A DNA stretch of 64,000 bases, taken from the sequence record NC_022968.1, one strand, 5' to 3'. The notes under the pieces were generated by a model that was not told the origin of the DNA, ran no database searches, and worked only from the letters and a program-made list of their open reading frames with translations. Positions 47,513 to 61,475 of the stretch are shown here, piece by piece. Both the position numbers and the translations under genes were made by a program. The DNA comes from Escherichia phage 4MG. Numbering within the stretch: position 1 is the stretch's first letter; every line of letters starts with the position of its first letter.

Positions 47513-47847
47513 AGCGCCCCCGGATCTGCATTCTCACAACGATCCCACTTGCCACACTTCTTATCAACGTAGTGCTCAAGGCGACGTTGGACTGTTTCTA
47601 CGATTGCTGGCATGTCATCCTCACGAGGATTAATGCAGTCCTGAAGTTCAAGCAGGAAGGCCAGATCGATTACACAGTTGATAACATCAGCAATCTCACC
47701 GATTGCAGGTTCATCGCAACGCCAAGGGCGATTAAGCGCTCTTGACAGTTCACCAACTTCCTCTACGAGATTCTTAAACACTGAATCAACAGTCCGGGCT
47801 TGCGCCCGAACCGAGGACTGGAGTACGCGTTCAGCGATTCCTGTCAT
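47509..47847 (-). CDS. MazG-like nucleotide pyrophosphohydrolase
   Basis: EEVGELSRAL ... EIADVINCVIDLA matches the MazG fold motif. Confidence 0.5.
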   Translation of the reverse strand: MTGIAERVLQSSVRAQARTVDSVFKNLVEEVGELSRALNRPWRCDEPAIGEIADVINCVIDLAFLLELQDCINPREDDMPAIVETVQRRLEHYVDKKCGKWDRCENADPGAL

Positions 47848-48491
47848 TTAGACTCCTTCTCCTTTGCCTTTTCTGCTTCGGCAGCTTTGGCAGAAGCATC
47901 AAGCTCTTCAGTGTACTTCTTGATTTGAGCATCAAGGTACTTGATCGTGCTATCAGCCAGTTGCTGAGTACGAGGTGACTCAACCACGTTCTGACCTACA
48001 TATGCTGCCAGCATCTTGTACGCAGTCTCTTTCTGAGGCATGAAGTTGGCATACAGAATACCGATGAAGCAAACAATCATGCCAAACACAGCGATCTTAC
48101 GTGGTCCTTTGGTCATATCACGCTTAGGAACAGGTTGTTGTTCTTGTTCACGGCGTGGCGGTGCAGTAACTTCGCCAAGAACTTCAAATCGCAGCCAACC
48201 GGAAGTCTCGCCATTTGGATACCGAACTTTCAAAGTTCCATCGTTATCGACGGTTGTGATTACCAGCACATCCCCAGTCTTTAAATTGATCCAGTCCTTA
48301 GTCAGGACAAGGTTCTGACCGAGATAGAAGCCGTAGCTCTCTTTTTTACCGTCAGTCTCTTCATAACATTTCTGGATAGCATACATGATCACATATGCTG
48401 CGCCAGCGATAAACATCAGGAAACCCCAACCGCTGTAAGTACCGTCAGTGGTGAGTACATCAATTAAGTAAATCAGAAAAGGCCATGACAT
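47844..48491 (-). CDS. membrane protein
   Basis: Multiple hydrophobic segments; Lys/Glu-rich C-terminus. Confidence 0.5.
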   Translation of the reverse strand: MSWPFLIYLIDVLTTDGTYSGWGFLMFIAGAAYVIMYAIQKCYEETDGKKESYGFYLGQNLVLTKDWINLKTGDVLVITTVDNDGTLKVRYPNGETSGWLRFEVLGEVTAPPRREQEQQPVPKRDMTKGPRKIAVFGMIVCFIGILYANFMPQKETAYKMLAAYVGQNVVESPRTQQLADSTIKYLDAQIKKYTEELDASAKAAEAEKAKEKESK

Positions 48492-48748
48492 CAGTTATTC
48501 TCCTCTACGTAAGAAACAGTTGTGGAAGGATCATTTTTACTTCCACCGTAATTTGTGTGGGTGGTTGAGTTAGGGCAGCGAACTACGTACAGAGTTCTCT
48601 GTCCACGCTCAGATGAAGACACCCGGTAAATATGACAATCCCGAAGACCATCTGGTAGTTCATAAATTCCAGTTTTTTCCTCTGAAGGATATGGACCACA
48701 ACCAGATAATATCATCGTAACAGCCAGCAATGCAAGAACTTTTCTCAC
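48491..48748 (-). CDS. lipoprotein
   Basis: Signal peptide MRKVLALLAVTMILSGC with lipobox LSGC. Confidence 0.55.
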   Translation of the reverse strand: MRKVLALLAVTMILSGCGPYPSEEKTGIYELPDGLRDCHIYRVSSSERGQRTLYVVRCPNSTTHTNYGGSKNDPSTTVSYVEENN

Positions 48749-48759
48749 TTAATTTCCCC

Positions 48760-48963
48760 TTACGGAATCTCAGCCTTTCGATTATCAACACACATGACAG
48801 TGGGGATAGGTTTGGTAGAGAAATCCTTGATCTTATCTTTGCCGTTGCAAAACTCAACAGCCCACTTGAATGCCCCTTCATCACGGCTAACGCCAGAAAA
48901 GACCACAGCAAAAACAAACAATGAAAGAAAAATACCAACCATAAAATAGTATGGATTACTCAT
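48760..48963 (-). CDS. small membrane protein
   Basis: Trimmed start; one hydrophobic segment. Confidence 0.4.
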   Translation of the reverse strand: MSNPYYFMVGIFLSLFVFAVVFSGVSRDEGAFKWAVEFCNGKDKIKDFSTKPIPTVMCVDNRKAEIP

Positions 48964-49232: not shown

Positions 49233-49529
49233 TTACTTCTTAATCAGTTCATCAAGAGGAATGTACAGACTGGTTTTGCCGGGTCTTTCTACCACTTCGA
49301 GGTAACCTAGTGCCTCTAAAGTTTTAAGAGACCTCTGTACACTTCGTGGGCTAACACTAGTTGCTTCCGCAATGGTGTTAACTGACTCTACAAACTCTGC
49401 TCCCTTGCTCTGGAAGAACTGCCACCTGAACTTAATATACAGGTAGACCCGGAGGTCTGTTGACGAGACCTCCGGATTTGACAGGATTCCATACGAGCAT
49501 AAAACACTGAAAGACTTATCTATTCTCAT
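49233..49529 (-). CDS. helix-turn-helix DNA-binding protein
   Basis: IAEATSVSPRSVQRSLKTLEALGYL resembles a winged-helix HTH. Confidence 0.45.
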   Translation of the reverse strand: MRIDKSFSVLCSYGILSNPEVSSTDLRVYLYIKFRWQFFQSKGAEFVESVNTIAEATSVSPRSVQRSLKTLEALGYLEVVERPGKTSLYIPLDELIKK

Positions 49530-49912
49530 GCTGTCTCCAGATAGTCTTTCAGATATTCGATGACGTAGCTACGTGCATAGTTCTCATCAGCATCGTTATG
49601 CCACATTTTAGTGACAACACCAGTCAATTTGTATAGTGAACGTTCAAAATGGTTCATCCCCGGAAGAATACTCACCATAAAATCCTCTTCCTCACTAATT
49701 TCAAGAGGATTAACAGTGAAGTCTGGTTGAACTAGTGTCTCCCAGGCTCCATTTTTGAACCGTTTTAAGGTCAAGGCACGACGATTTGAAGAGGTAAGAT
49801 ACTCAGAGTAGTCATCCCCCTGGTGAAAACCGATCCTGACCATAGCCCCACTGTACATAAAATCAACATCCACAGTGAGGCGCTCTACCTTCAGCCTATT
49901 TTGCGTGTTCAT
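49526..49912 (-). CDS. hypothetical protein
   Basis: ATGA overlap. Confidence 0.45.
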   Translation of the reverse strand: MNTQNRLKVERLTVDVDFMYSGAMVRIGFHQGDDYSEYLTSSNRRALTLKRFKNGAWETLVQPDFTVNPLEISEEEDFMVSILPGMNHFERSLYKLTGVVTKMWHNDADENYARSYVIEYLKDYLETA

Positions 49913-51332
49913 CTAAGTCAACAGCCCTCCCAAATGGTGGGTCGTACTTGGATTTGTTACGTCCACACAGCACCCACAACGTATCCCACTTCTTACCCCA
50001 GTCTTTTTTGCGTGAGGTAAGGTCTTCAATGTACCCATCAGTGAAGATTATCACATCTTTTGCATCAGGGATATTCTTTTCGATGTATTCAAAGGCAACA
50101 CCAGCGCGTGTACCACCTGTGGAAGTCACATTATAGTCCAGCATCTCCTTGATGTTATCCTGTGTGTACACTTTCACTTCCCCAACCATCGTAGACCAGC
50201 AGAAAAGTGTTACCCGGAAGCACTTATACAGGGTGCACAGGCCAATAATCTCATTGAATATCCTGGTCATGGTCTGTCTGCTGATAGAACCCGACACATC
50301 GAAGCATACAACGATGTCGATTGTCTCAGATTGCTTCCTTCCCGGAAGAATAATGCTCTGTTTGTGGGTGATTGCCCCATAATTACGCAGTACCTGGGTC
50401 ACCGAGCCAGACCTACGAGCGGGTTTACGGTACGAAAGGTGCGACCTCACACGAGAAACCATACGTTGTTTAATGATTTTCATGTAGTCAATGTGTGGTT
50501 TCCGCATTCTTGCAATCAATTCCCGCGCTTCTTTCGGCCCTTCACCCCCGGCAGCACTCATTGCAGCATCAATCAGCCCAGCAGACCACGCAAGATTCTC
50601 ATCTTTGGCGATTGGGCCGAGGCTTGGGTGCGGGTCTACATACCCAAGGATGTCACGCTCAGGGTCATAATCCCCGATATGTGTACCCATAGGGTTGCCA
50701 GTAACCGCTTTCCCATTGTAGATCATCTCGTAAATTTCTTCTGCTGTCTTGTTTTGGAATGCAAAATCACAATAGCAGTAGGCAAGGAATCCAAATTCTT
50801 TGTCTTTATTGAACTTAGTTTGCGCCCCCAGAGGGAAGAACTTCAGGGTTTTATTCCTTGGCCCCAAGTCTCCAGCCACCAAATCTGTGTTGATGTACTG
50901 ATCCGCTGCGATATTGTACATCTTGGAGTTGAAGCTTTTACCACGGGCCATATGGTCGTTGGTGATATGGCGTATTTCATGCATGAGAATAACCACCACT
51001 TCTTTTGGTGTTTTCTTGCGATAGAATACGTCTACATACGTCTTGTAATCATCCTTCTGTTGTTGTGTCATTGTTGGATGATTGTCAATACGATCAAACA
51101 CTTTCTTTTTGCGCTCTGCTGGCATACCCATAATGAACTCAGGGTTGTAATACAGATTACGATGGTCTGTTGCAGCCGTTGGCAACCAACGCCAGTCAGC
51201 GATGATCGGTAAAGAACTCAGCAAAGTTCCGTAAAATGGGCGATGTTGCAGCAATGCAATACGTGCTGACTGAATTAGTTTTAGCGCTTCATCTTGAAGC
51301 TTAGAGATCATCTCAGATTCATCTTTGTACAC
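49896..51332 (-). CDS. metallopeptidase-like / von Willebrand factor A domain protein (DUF2201-like architecture)
   Basis: HEIRH (HExxH) in N-terminal half; DVSGSI (MIDAS DxSxS) in C-terminal half; start set at GTG with GGAG RBS. Confidence 0.55.
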   Translation of the reverse strand: MYKDESEMISKLQDEALKLIQSARIALLQHRPFYGTLLSSLPIIADWRWLPTAATDHRNLYYNPEFIMGMPAERKKKVFDRIDNHPTMTQQQKDDYKTYVDVFYRKKTPKEVVVILMHEIRHITNDHMARGKSFNSKMYNIAADQYINTDLVAGDLGPRNKTLKFFPLGAQTKFNKDKEFGFLAYCYCDFAFQNKTAEEIYEMIYNGKAVTGNPMGTHIGDYDPERDILGYVDPHPSLGPIAKDENLAWSAGLIDAAMSAAGGEGPKEARELIARMRKPHIDYMKIIKQRMVSRVRSHLSYRKPARRSGSVTQVLRNYGAITHKQSIILPGRKQSETIDIVVCFDVSGSISRQTMTRIFNEIIGLCTLYKCFRVTLFCWSTMVGEVKVYTQDNIKEMLDYNVTSTGGTRAGVAFEYIEKNIPDAKDVIIFTDGYIEDLTSRKKDWGKKWDTLWVLCGRNKSKYDPPFGRAVDLDEHAK

Positions 51333-51344
51333 AGTTATCTCCAA

Positions 51345-51381: not shown

Positions 51382-51645
51382 TCACTCTTCTACAGGATGC
51401 AAGAACTTTTGTGGTAAAAAGTGATCAAGCCCTTCTATTCTGAAACACCAGGCCAACTGAGCACCAGGAGCACCGGGGAAATGTGGGATAGCAAACAAGA
51501 CAATCCCATCAACTTTTCCAATTACGAGTCGCCCCATAGAGGTTGTTGATACCTTTTGACCGAACTTGATATCCGGAATAAAGCCTGCATCCAACATTTT
51601 CTTTTCAGGAGCCGACGCGGGTCGGCCCAGCATTTCTTCGTACAT
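51382..51645 (-). CDS. hypothetical protein
   Basis: TAATG overlap with upstream gene. Confidence 0.45.
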   Translation of the reverse strand: MYEEMLGRPASAPEKKMLDAGFIPDIKFGQKVSTTSMGRLVIGKVDGIVLFAIPHFPGAPGAQLAWCFRIEGLDHFLPQKFLHPVEE

Positions 51646-52577
51646 TACACCACCTTGTTGAGCATCGCAGCAATCTTAGGCAGGCCCATCTCTGTCTGAA
51701 TGATCAGTTGGGTCAGCGCCTTTTCCATTTTCTTCGACACAATGATGAAGTTGTCTTTAGCAAAACCAACTTTAAGGTCCATAATCAGGATCGCCTTTGG
51801 TTCACCAGACAGCTTCTCTCCGGTCAGAGAGCAGGTATTGCGAATATACTTCGCTTTGAACTGTGCATAGGTCACAGAAACGTTCATACCAGCGTCGGAG
51901 AATGTCTTGCAGTAGTTGGCGTAGGCCAGCGCTACAGCAACATCATCAGGCAGTTTTTGCTTCTCTTCCGCTGGTGCTGTAGTTTCTTCTGCAACCGGAG
52001 GCTGTTTATGGAAGTGCTGTTCAGCAAGTTCCATTGCGGAAGACGCGGTGCGCTCTTTAGGTTCCGGGTGACGTGGAAAATCTTCTGCAACAACAGGTTT
52101 TTCTACAACTTCTGAAGTATCTACTGGCATTTCTTTCTCCTCTTTTGGAATATATTTGGTTTTCAGTTTTTCCATGTGCTCTTTTGACATGTTGAGCATC
52201 ATTGCTTGTACGATTTCACGGTCAAGTGGCTCAATTATAGTGATTGCCGTCTTCTTGTCAACCAAACAATCTTTCAGTTCGTTAGCACGTTGAAGAACAA
52301 CACAGACGTTACCACGTACATAACCCTTCTTATCGTTGATACGCTCAACGGTTGGGTACAGCGGGTCTTTTTCACCATGCACAGAGCGCATACTGAAGTC
52401 CATATTGGTATAGTCACATTTACCCATACCAAGAAGCTTTTCACCCATCATGAACCAGTCATCAAGGGTCAGACTGAATTCCAGGCCACGTTTCTTTGTG
52501 CGTTCAACCTTTTTACGGTAACGTTCCTCTAGACTTTTGATCTCACTGGCGGTAAATTTCTTTTTCACATCAAACAT
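51645..52577 (-). CDS. hypothetical protein with degenerate HNH_3-like segment
   Basis: ERINDKKGYVRGNVCVVLQRANELK resembles the C-terminal half of HNH_3; minus-strand AAGGAG RBS. Confidence 0.45.
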   Translation of the reverse strand: MFDVKKKFTASEIKSLEERYRKKVERTKKRGLEFSLTLDDWFMMGEKLLGMGKCDYTNMDFSMRSVHGEKDPLYPTVERINDKKGYVRGNVCVVLQRANELKDCLVDKKTAITIIEPLDREIVQAMMLNMSKEHMEKLKTKYIPKEEKEMPVDTSEVVEKPVVAEDFPRHPEPKERTASSAMELAEQHFHKQPPVAEETTAPAEEKQKLPDDVAVALAYANYCKTFSDAGMNVSVTYAQFKAKYIRNTCSLTGEKLSGEPKAILIMDLKVGFAKDNFIIVSKKMEKALTQLIIQTEMGLPKIAAMLNKVV

Positions 52578-60411: not shown

Positions 60412-60608
60412 TCGAATTAAAAGATGGTATGGTTGCACATACTAAAAAGATCGACCTTCATGTCGGTAATACGGTGTTCACCTATAACGCCCCTCGTGGT
60501 CAGAGCTTTGCTATCCTACTCCTTGGTGCAGAGAAGCCAAGTGGTGACGGCACTGGTATCCAGATCGATGAGTGGCTGAAGAATCGCGGTTGGAAACTGG
60601 AGGACTAA
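60408..60608 (+). CDS. hypothetical protein
   Basis: Trimmed start. Confidence 0.45.
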   Translation: MIELKDGMVAHTKKIDLHVGNTVFTYNAPRGQSFAILLLGAEKPSGDGTGIQIDEWLKNRGWKLED

Positions 60609-60850
60609 TGTATTATAAACATAAAAGCGCAGACCAGCAGAAAGAATTATTCGCTATTTTGGATACGGATAACAACTCTTTCTGGTTCTCAGGTATGAAT
60701 CGTGTAGCATATTCATCCTCTGGGATTGCAAAGACAGCGTTCTCTTCCAGCGCGAAAAATCCTCTCCGCTGCAAGTTCGGAGAACAGACTCGCTTTAAGA
60801 TTGTTCGCGTAGCGATTACACCAGAGGGGATTATTGCTCATGAGGTATAA
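60608..60850 (+). CDS. hypothetical protein (paralog pair, copy 1)
   Basis: Shares D-T-x-FW-x-G-x-AW/Y-x-S-xG-AK-xA...RxK...Q-TR-x-V-V pattern with next gene. Confidence 0.5.
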   Translation: MYYKHKSADQQKELFAILDTDNNSFWFSGMNRVAYSSSGIAKTAFSSSAKNPLRCKFGEQTRFKIVRVAITPEGIIAHEV

Positions 60851-61088
60851 AAAACGACTTGACACAGTTTTCTTAATCTTCGATACTGAGGACGGTATTT
60901 TGTGGAGTCATGGGCCAAAGGCTGCTTGGATAAGTACCGGGGCAGCAAAGAATGCCTGGAACTTATGCTCTAAGTCATACTATGACGACAAAGGCGACCG
61001 CATAAAACCGAAGTTTGACGATCAAACGCGTTATGTCATCGTTGAAATTCATGAAAATTTTGTTAGAAATCTTGTAGAGGAGAAATAA
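60840..61088 (+). CDS. hypothetical protein (paralog pair, copy 2)
   Basis: Tandem duplicate of previous gene. Confidence 0.5.
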   Translation: MRYKKRLDTVFLIFDTEDGILWSHGPKAAWISTGAAKNAWNLCSKSYYDDKGDRIKPKFDDQTRYVIVEIHENFVRNLVEEK

Positions 61089-61475
61089 ATGACTATGAGT
61101 AAATCTTTGGGCCAAACTACCCCTGCACAGCCTACAGAAATTGGGGGTAAGCGTTTCGCTGGTATCCTGCGTGATGTGGAACCGTTCTTCGGTTTCGGTA
61201 CGCATAAAGAGGTTCGTTGCATCTATGGTATCTTGGGCCGTGACCACAAAAACCGTGGCTTTGATGGTGGGCCGGTCCGTACTTCTGTTGTGCAGGATCT
61301 GATTGTCCATGAAGGTGATATTTATGCTATCACTATGAATAGCGCCTATCTGCTGGAAAGCGTACAGCTTCAGCATTTTATCGCCAGCGATATTTGGCGT
61401 GATGACATTGCCAAGCTCATTGCTCTCGCAATGATTGGTCAGGCAGCAAAGAATGAGGAGTCTAAAATTGACTAA
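61089..61475 (+). CDS. hypothetical protein
   Basis: ORF. Confidence 0.45.
   Translation: MTMSKSLGQTTPAQPTEIGGKRFAGILRDVEPFFGFGTHKEVRCIYGILGRDHKNRGFDGGPVRTSVVQDLIVHEGDIYAITMNSAYLLESVQLQHFIASDIWRDDIAKLIALAMIGQAAKNEESKID

Follow-up and report, generated by a model that had tools for sequence, protein, structure and literature searches.

Organization of the locus

The window analysed here is a stretch of 64,000 nucleotides from Escherichia phage 4MG (NC_022968.1), and the genes under study are three adjacent minus-strand open reading frames (ORFs), referred to below as A, B and C, of which B, encoding a small lipoprotein, is the main subject. B (48748-48491, minus strand; family phrog_902) begins with a GTG codon and specifies a lipoprotein precursor of 85 amino acids (aa). 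It is preceded by A (48963-48760, minus strand; phrog_6073), whose product of 67 aa starts with a hydrophobic anchor or signal, and followed by C (48491-47844, minus strand; phrog_12750), which encodes a 215-aa protein with two transmembrane (TM) segments. The order of transcription on the minus strand is A, B, C and then a MazG-like gene (47847-47509). The genes are tightly packed, with the Shine-Dalgarno sequence of B overlapping the TAA stop codon of A and the stop codon of B overlapping the start of C as TGATG.

Two observations indicate that B is a real, selected gene for a predicted lipoprotein. A good Shine-Dalgarno sequence (GGGG, 48759-48756) lies 7 nt 5' of its GTG start, and comparison with L006, a metagenomic relative of 93% identity, yields nine synonymous and three non-synonymous codon differences. 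The corresponding values are 19:6 for A and 46:10 for C, and all three genes are under purifying selection in this comparison. The N-terminus of B (MRK-VLALLAVTMI-LSG, followed by Cys17) satisfies a PROSITE-type lipobox rule applied as a regular expression, and a scan of the 64-kb window with such expressions identified it as the only convincing lipoprotein start. The predicted signal peptide spans codons 1-17 (48748-48698, minus strand) and ends in the lipobox L14-S15-G16-C17 (48709-48698, minus strand), the Cys of which occupies the same place in all 120 homologues retrieved. This call is based on the rule plus conservation. Lipoprotein-signal models match the N-terminus of B weakly (LptM and SA0632 from NCBIfam, with LPAM_1 from Pfam matching on relatives), and apart from models of this kind, searches of Pfam, NCBIfam and PADLOC with B returned nothing. 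A preliminary description of this DNA had proposed a short lipoprotein with a signal peptide and an LSGC lipobox at 48491-48748, flanked by membrane proteins. The lipoprotein is confirmed by the ORF, the lipobox rule and the conservation of its Cys, with the minus strand as the coding strand, and membrane or secreted proteins do lie on both sides, A with its N-terminal hydrophobic anchor and C with its two TM segments.

Mature B comprises 69 aa (~7.7 kDa, isoelectric point 5.5), with Gly at position +2. Under the Lol +2 rule, Gly at this position corresponds to default outer-membrane sorting in Enterobacterales and Asp to inner-membrane retention, and B would therefore be expected to reach the outer membrane. 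The core motif reads Y-x-LP-x-GL-x-DC-x-IY...LYVVRCPNS-x-T. In an AlphaFold2 (AF2) model, the conserved pair Cys38/Cys58 brackets a predicted beta-hairpin (residues 39-44 and 52-57), which is followed by a disordered, Ser/Thr-rich tail. The protein is predicted to be beta-structured and, with five Pro among its 69 mature residues, is not Pro-rich.

The family of B

Profile searches identify B as a new member of a phage family that has been catalogued and is functionally uncharacterised. The phrog_902 profile matches the full-length protein with an E value of 4.6e-13 and the mature part alone with 3.2e-7. Homologues are present in 278 phage records by tblastn, all at less than 60% identity and all annotated as "hypothetical". 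Carriers include Felixounavirus, Mooglevirus, jumbo Eneladusvirus, the jumbo phages Serratia BF, Erwinia pEa_SNUABM and Yersinia fHe-Yen9, Vequintavirinae-like phages, Klebsiella phages of 149 kb, and Acinetobacter and Aeromonas myophages, and all carriers among the records listed have virulent-type genomes. The host genera of these phages include Escherichia, Salmonella, Serratia, Erwinia, Yersinia, Klebsiella, Acinetobacter and Aeromonas. A profile search retrieved 255 relatives (clustered at 90%), every one of which bears the precomputed Pfam tag PF16225 (DUF4884); a local copy of Pfam-A did not recover PF16225 on B or its relatives even at an E value of 10. In the phage-genome literature, DUF4884 is mentioned solely as an entry in the gene table of one paper.

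An exhaustive hidden Markov model (HMM) search with a profile of the mature domain returned 1,021 clusters at 50% identity, 437 of them at E <= 1e-10. All members of these clusters are 61-154 aa long and carry the domain directly after the signal peptide, and no domain fusions were found among the 1,021 clusters. In family alignments, the D-C...VVRCPNS-x-T core with its two conserved Cys residues starts within ~12 residues after the lipobox, and the invariant or nearly invariant positions, in the numbering of B, are C17, P32, D37, C38, V55, V56, R57, C58, P59, S61, T63 and K71. Many members also possess C-terminal extensions that contain repeated V-I-D/N-G-x-x-Y motifs or a ALKKLTPEERKALGL tail.

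The family appears to be almost confined to phages, because bacterial and archaeal genomes sampled at one per species (100,044 in total) yielded a single homologue, the two scans giving 0 and 1 hits, with the limit that both scans depend on an exact VVRCPNS-type motif and divergent bacterial homologues could escape them. The sole bacterial homologue belongs to Hylemonella gracilis ATCC 19624 (NZ_AEGR01000062.1; 4929-5207 of locus L019). Its neighbourhood, which may be a genomic island, includes an XRE-type regulator, a second lipoprotein and a secreted protein of 488 aa. Where the context of the phage homologues is readable, the family occupies early or replication regions, as in Mordin-type phages, where the gene lies between those for DNA polymerase and ligase, and in Serratia BF, where it is close to the polynucleotide kinase gene.

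A cassette-exchange slot upstream of C

By DNA similarity, the window belongs to a large, lytic, Seunavirus-like (PVP-SE1/GAP31) myophage. Approximately 6 kb around the locus match Seunavirus (Vequintavirinae) genomes at 83-86% DNA identity, namely Cronobacter phage GAP31, Escherichia phage LNA4 and Enterobacter phage EC152, with Salmonella phage PVP-SE1 among the more distant matches. One further record, PQ002170.1 (Salmonella phage vB_Sen_SG_WM_RUS_R7, hereafter R7; L002), shares 80% identity with the query DNA segment. Its taxonomy line reads Demerecviridae, while the gene order over 7.1 kb matches that of Seunavirus PVP-SE1, and this classification is probably mistaken.

The stretch between the upstream helix-turn-helix (HTH) gene and C, here called the slot, was compared in nine genomes and shows four arrangements. 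In the window and in L006, it holds A plus B. In GAP31, A is accompanied by an unrelated Zn-ribbon-like ORF of 61 aa, with no B. In EC152 and LNA4, the slot contains only a Cys-rich ORF of 142 aa resembling PVP-SE1 gp212, and both A and B are absent. In PVP-SE1, R7, SPLA5a and EspYZU15, a gp212-like ORF stands together with gp211, a 70-aa true lipoprotein homologous to A, again with no B. C is found in each of the nine genomes, with or without A and B. The gp212-like protein (2559-2987 of L007; 4030-4404 of L011), which replaces A and B in EC152 and LNA4 and stands beside gp211 in the PVP-SE1 group, is ~124-142 aa long and has many CxC/CxxC motifs and no signal peptide.

The boundaries of these differences are sharp. 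According to blastn, DNA homology to GAP31 ends at 48758 and restarts at 48504, which delimits exactly an exchangeable B cassette (48757-48505, minus strand) consisting of the Shine-Dalgarno sequence and nearly the whole B ORF; GAP31 carries in its place a different segment of 191 bp that encodes the 61-aa ORF. Homology to EC152 ends at 48961, in the ATG of A, and likewise restarts at 48504. Because the contents differ across the nine genomes and the breakpoints coincide with gene edges, the comparison shows that cassettes are exchanged in the slot, while the promoter and leader before it stay the same, and that A and B are independent accessory genes.

These observations do not support the grouping of A, B and C into a module, as the preliminary description had done, since B and A are exchangeable and are absent from relatives that keep C. 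Moreover, among seven other phages with B homologues, six show no membrane-protein neighbour and have small soluble proteins instead, so that the flanking by membrane proteins is a local feature and not a conserved one. An obligate A-B-C module was rejected on the basis of both comparisons, and the apparent "module" is best regarded as an accident of cassette exchange. B by itself is ordinary for a large lytic phage; as a member of a large, almost phage-confined, cassette-mobile and uncharacterised family, it is a reasonable experimental target.

Genes A and C

The product of A has a single hydrophobic N-terminal segment (Kyte-Doolittle 2.55 over 19 residues) and an ectodomain of 41 aa with two Cys residues. 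The phrog_6073 profile matches it with an E value of 8.7e-23, and it aligns with PVP-SE1 gp211 and with T5-like homologues. Its relatives in PVP-SE1-type and T5-like phages are true lipoproteins with the lipobox LTGC. In the window, L006 and GAP31, the same site reads FSGV (codons 23-26; 48896-48885 in the window, minus strand), so that the lipobox Cys is lost while the hydrophobic segment and both ectodomain Cys residues are retained. Because LTGC became FSGV, A would be signal-anchored or cleaved by signal peptidase I rather than lipidated, and a lipoprotein has apparently been converted into such a protein in this lineage. Profile-profile comparison shows no relationship between the families of A and B, and a sequence-profile search of the Protein Data Bank (PDB) with A gave no meaningful match. 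A longer form of A beginning at ATG 49005 (81 aa) was judged less likely, because this start falls in a leader shared by unrelated first genes and the upstream reading frame is not conserved between relatives.

The family of A carries the label "Rz-like spanin" in PHROG, and many records in GenBank and RefSeq have taken it over. Other members lie at 3821-4033 of L011 and at 4001-4198 of L017/L018; PVP-SE1-type phages have the gene 5' of C, and many T5-like phages have it within their tRNA region. The spanin genes of rV5, PVP-SE1 and GAP31 adjoin the large terminase gene, terL (Kongari et al. 2018; Buttimer et al. 2020), and the curated positions are 60594-61283 in PVP-SE1 and 92267-92959 in GAP31 (Kongari et al. 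2018). GAP31_194/195, next to terL, form a typical pair of a protein with a transmembrane domain and coiled coil and a Pro-rich lipoprotein; neither is related to A, B or C, and the spanin region falls outside the present window. In T5-like phages, the curated SPC35 spanins are likewise far from the phrog_6073 gene. Because the family is distant from the curated spanins in both lineages, the label is probably a systematic mis-annotation.

C contains hydrophobic helices at approximately residues 21-40 and 132-151, and its PVP-SE1 orthologue is annotated with two TM segments (TMHMM/Phobius). The N-terminal tail (MSWPFLIYLIDVLTTDG) is nearly invariant, as are the second TM segment and the following GILYANFMPQKETAYKMLAAYVGQNVVESPRTQQLADSTIKYLDAQIKKYT, and the loop between the two TM segments is variable. 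From the charge distribution we infer a topology with the N-terminus outside, a cytoplasmic loop and a periplasmic C-terminal helical domain. The AF2 model of C has a predicted local distance difference test (pLDDT) score of 63.5 and gives the loop an SH3/Tudor-like fold at modest confidence; a Foldseek search found a generic fold of this type for the loop only (E ~0.06), and a PDB sequence-profile search with C produced no meaningful match. The family of C is limited to Vequintavirinae-like genomes of 140-150 kb.

Promoter, leader and neighbouring genes

A consensus scan located a putative sigma-70-like promoter 5' of the slot (TTGATC and TATAGT separated by 16 nt; 49119-49092, minus strand), both hexamers of which are invariant in GAP31, EC152, PVP-SE1 and SPLA5a. 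It is followed by a conserved leader of ~125 nt (49091-48964, minus strand; defined by DNA alignment) that ends in a GGAG Shine-Dalgarno sequence. This leader is nearly invariant in the same four phages although the first downstream gene differs. A stem (GAAGTG...CACTTC) is kept and its loop is variable, while the RNA hairpins and overall fold predicted for the leader are not significant (z = -1.25). The leader may be a regulatory 5' untranslated region.

The same strand carries a Srd-like sigma decoy, a DUF2201/VWA protein, the HTH protein and MazG, and the operon holding B looks to be of an early, host-takeover type. The Srd-like protein (310 aa; 51645-52577, minus strand) matches PHROG families described as "decoy of host sigma70", and the same protein also bears the label HNH endonuclease. 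The 482-aa protein at 49896-51344 (minus strand) combines a DUF2201 metallopeptidase and a VWA domain according to Pfam; PHROG-based annotation names it "HNH endonuclease", at odds with Pfam. Two small early ORFs (49526-49912 and 51382-51645) bear PHROG-derived "tail protein" labels that are doubtful.

Possible role of B and alternative explanations

The following scheme may account for these features. B would be transcribed early by host RNA polymerase, as its promoter and neighbours suggest, would undergo Sec/Lgt/Lsp processing and, owing to Gly at +2, would be sorted by Lol to the outer membrane. Its domain of ~50 residues, with a hairpin probably stapled by a Cys38-Cys58 disulfide and a Ser/Thr-rich, strand-prone tail, would then bind a conserved, periplasm-facing component of the envelope, thereby changing the infected cell's envelope in the phage's favour, either by excluding other phages or by protecting the envelope. 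That B is an early, outer-membrane-anchored accessory factor acting on a conserved envelope component for one of these ends is a tentative proposal, to which we give slightly less than an even chance; that it has an exclusion or protective role in particular has a probability of about one in three. A conserved envelope target is favoured over the masking of a single receptor because phages of many host genera share the conserved core, and in no case is the gene linked to one for receptor binding. A bolder version would make DUF4884/phrog_902 a new, receptor-independent class of envelope-acting proteins that dock on a conserved machine or structure (e.g. LptDE, BAM, OmpA/Pal or peptidoglycan) and make infected cells, or the debris they leave, refractory to a broad set of phages, or else shield the cells from defences triggered at the envelope. 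Such a class would explain both the occurrence of one motif across phages of unrelated hosts and the hopping of the cassette, but we consider it improbable as it stands.

Several observations weigh against this scheme. The AF2 model of B reaches a pLDDT of just 67, a moderate confidence that makes the picture of a hairpin with a disulfide tentative. Residue +2 is Asp in 36, Asn in 21 and Gly in 10 of the 120 homologues (B of the window included), and because of the 36 with Asp, outer-membrane anchoring may be dispensable for the family. The early timing would follow from a consensus promoter and the neighbouring genes, and the promoter scan returned fewer sites in this sequence than in shuffled sequence. 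B has no sequence or fold similarity to any characterised protein in Pfam, NCBIfam, PADLOC, PDB profile or Foldseek searches; with its model, Foldseek found nothing in the PDB at E <= 0.001 and family members only in BFVD. A literature search on DUF4884 and on phage lipoproteins and exclusion found no functional study of the family. Finally, Vequintavirinae are reported to use glycan receptors (NGR; PMC11990801), a poor fit with blocking by a lipoprotein that faces the periplasm.

This last point also counts against masking of the Llp/Cor/Rtp45 type, in which B would bind the periplasmic face of the phage's own outer-membrane protein receptor and allosterically block adsorption by that phage. 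These three proteins, small lipoproteins of the outer membrane that contain a disulfide, act in this manner, binding FhuA or LptD from the periplasmic side (PMC12685063). B falls in their size class, likewise has a lipid anchor and a conserved pair of Cys residues, and is probably expressed early, as they are. The idea of superinfection exclusion or receptor masking, raised in the preliminary description, is supported insofar as B belongs to the same general class of genes and lies in an early-looking operon; it lacks the homology and the adjoining receptor-binding gene that would complete the parallel. The match to Cor is a signal-peptide artefact, that to Llp covers residues 1-18 only, and there is no fold match. 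Furthermore, the core motif hardly varies among phages that infect at least eight host genera and differ in their receptors, and close relatives that presumably have the same adsorption apparatus are without B. Masking of the phage's own receptor is therefore unlikely. The wide distribution is better matched by a conserved target than by a single phage-specific receptor. Another alternative is envelope-directed manipulation of the host or counter-defence instead of exclusion, in which B could, for example, inhibit a periplasmic or outer-membrane enzyme, a protease or a stress sensor (Rcs, sigma-E) so that the infected cell stays productive; conservation across many hosts suggests a conserved host target. 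B lies amid host-takeover genes here and amid early or replication genes elsewhere, and the mixed +2 residues suggest a target that can be reached from either membrane. This explanation is drawn purely from distribution, and B has no similarity to known inhibitors or anti-defence proteins; we regard it as possible, with a probability of perhaps a quarter.

Two further explanations would tie B to its neighbours or to lysis. One possibility is a single complex of A, B and C that spans the envelope, C sitting in the inner membrane, B contributing the outer-membrane lipoprotein and A playing an accessory part; it would act in a spanin-like manner or block injection. The three genes are contiguous and translationally coupled through the overlaps between the Shine-Dalgarno sequence of B and the stop of A and between the stop of B and the start of C, the parts of C that vary least are predicted to lie on the periplasmic side, and three of the four slot arrangements have a small secreted protein 5' of C. 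However, EC152 and LNA4 have C but neither A nor B, and GAP31 and PVP-SE1 have C but no B; the start of C overlaps whichever gene precedes it, and its family is restricted to Vequintavirinae-like phages, whereas that of B is far wider and lacks C-like neighbours. Such a complex is therefore very unlikely. A role in lysis, in which B or the PHROG-labelled A would be an outer-membrane spanin (o-spanin) or an auxiliary lysis lipoprotein, draws on the predicted outer-membrane location of B and on the phrog_6073 label, after which some records annotate the locus. The curated PVP-SE1 and GAP31 spanins, next to terL and unrelated to any of the three proteins, speak against it, as do the placement of the phrog_6073 gene in the tRNA region of T5-like phages, far from their curated spanins, the absence of an adjoining partner resembling an inner-membrane spanin (i-spanin), the early context, and the predicted beta-structured rather than Pro-rich nature of B. 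Comparison with the curated spanins tabulated by Kongari et al. (2018) and with the GAP31 locus led us to reject B and A as spanins, and a lysis role of any kind appears extremely improbable.

If the family of B does act in exclusion or envelope protection, as in the scheme that we prefer, the mechanism would be a generic one shared by hundreds of virulent phages, among them jumbo phages and those resembling Felix O1 and rV5/PVP-SE1. It would also bear on the design of phage cocktails, in which one phage could shut out another, given that these phages are popular in therapy and biocontrol. Moreover, it could reveal a conserved, druggable site in the Gram-negative envelope, as Rtp45 did for LptDE.

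Comparison with known systems

Two-component spanins (lambda Rz/Rz1; GAP31_194/195) resemble the present locus in that their o-spanin, too, is a small lipoprotein of the outer membrane whose gene adjoins one for a membrane protein, and B does possess an outer-membrane lipoprotein signal (LSG-C17, with Gly at +2). In contrast to spanins, B has no i-spanin partner, is not Pro-rich and lies in an early context, with the spanins of the lineage beside terL. No i-spanin partner was found adjoining B, the ectodomain of A being just 41 aa long and C being a two-TM protein that also occurs without B. A blastp comparison of B with the curated o-spanin GAP31_195 aligned only 18 residues of the signal peptide (E 0.078).

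Exclusion without a receptor target has precedents in T4 Imm and Sp, which are envelope-located exclusion proteins expressed early by a virulent myophage and are conceptually the closest parallels for C and for non-receptor exclusion. T4 Sp is a soluble, helical periplasmic protein and not a lipoprotein, and searches of PHROG and Pfam revealed no match of A, B or C to the Imm or Sp families.

T5 Llp (PDB 8A60 chain B) resembles B in being a small lipoprotein with a Cys pair that a virulent phage encodes; it is produced early and located in the outer membrane facing the periplasm, as would be expected of B. The PDB profile match between the two is confined to residues 1-18, i.e. the signal peptide (E 5.1), and Foldseek gave no match. 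Genomic context differs as well. The llp, cor and rtp45 genes adjoin receptor-binding genes, in the case of cor and rtp45 tail or receptor-binding genes of small siphophages, whereas B lies amid MazG, two-TM, HTH, DUF2201/VWA and Srd-like genes. In addition, Llp is tied to phages that use FhuA, whereas members of the B family occur in phages of many hosts.

Cor (phi80/N15/T1; phrog_1119) and Rtp45 (phage Rtp, binding LptDE) are likewise small outer-membrane exclusion lipoproteins. A relationship of B to Cor was considered and rejected, as the phrog_1119 profile reached an E value of 5.9e-4 with the signal peptide included and gave no match at E <= 1 with ten mature family members; a PDB sequence search with B did not return Rtp45. 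At the level of mechanism, Rtp45, a protein of ~6 kDa with one disulfide, binds its target by beta-strand augmentation (PMC12685063), a mode of binding that is compatible with the predicted hairpin and strand-prone tail of B.

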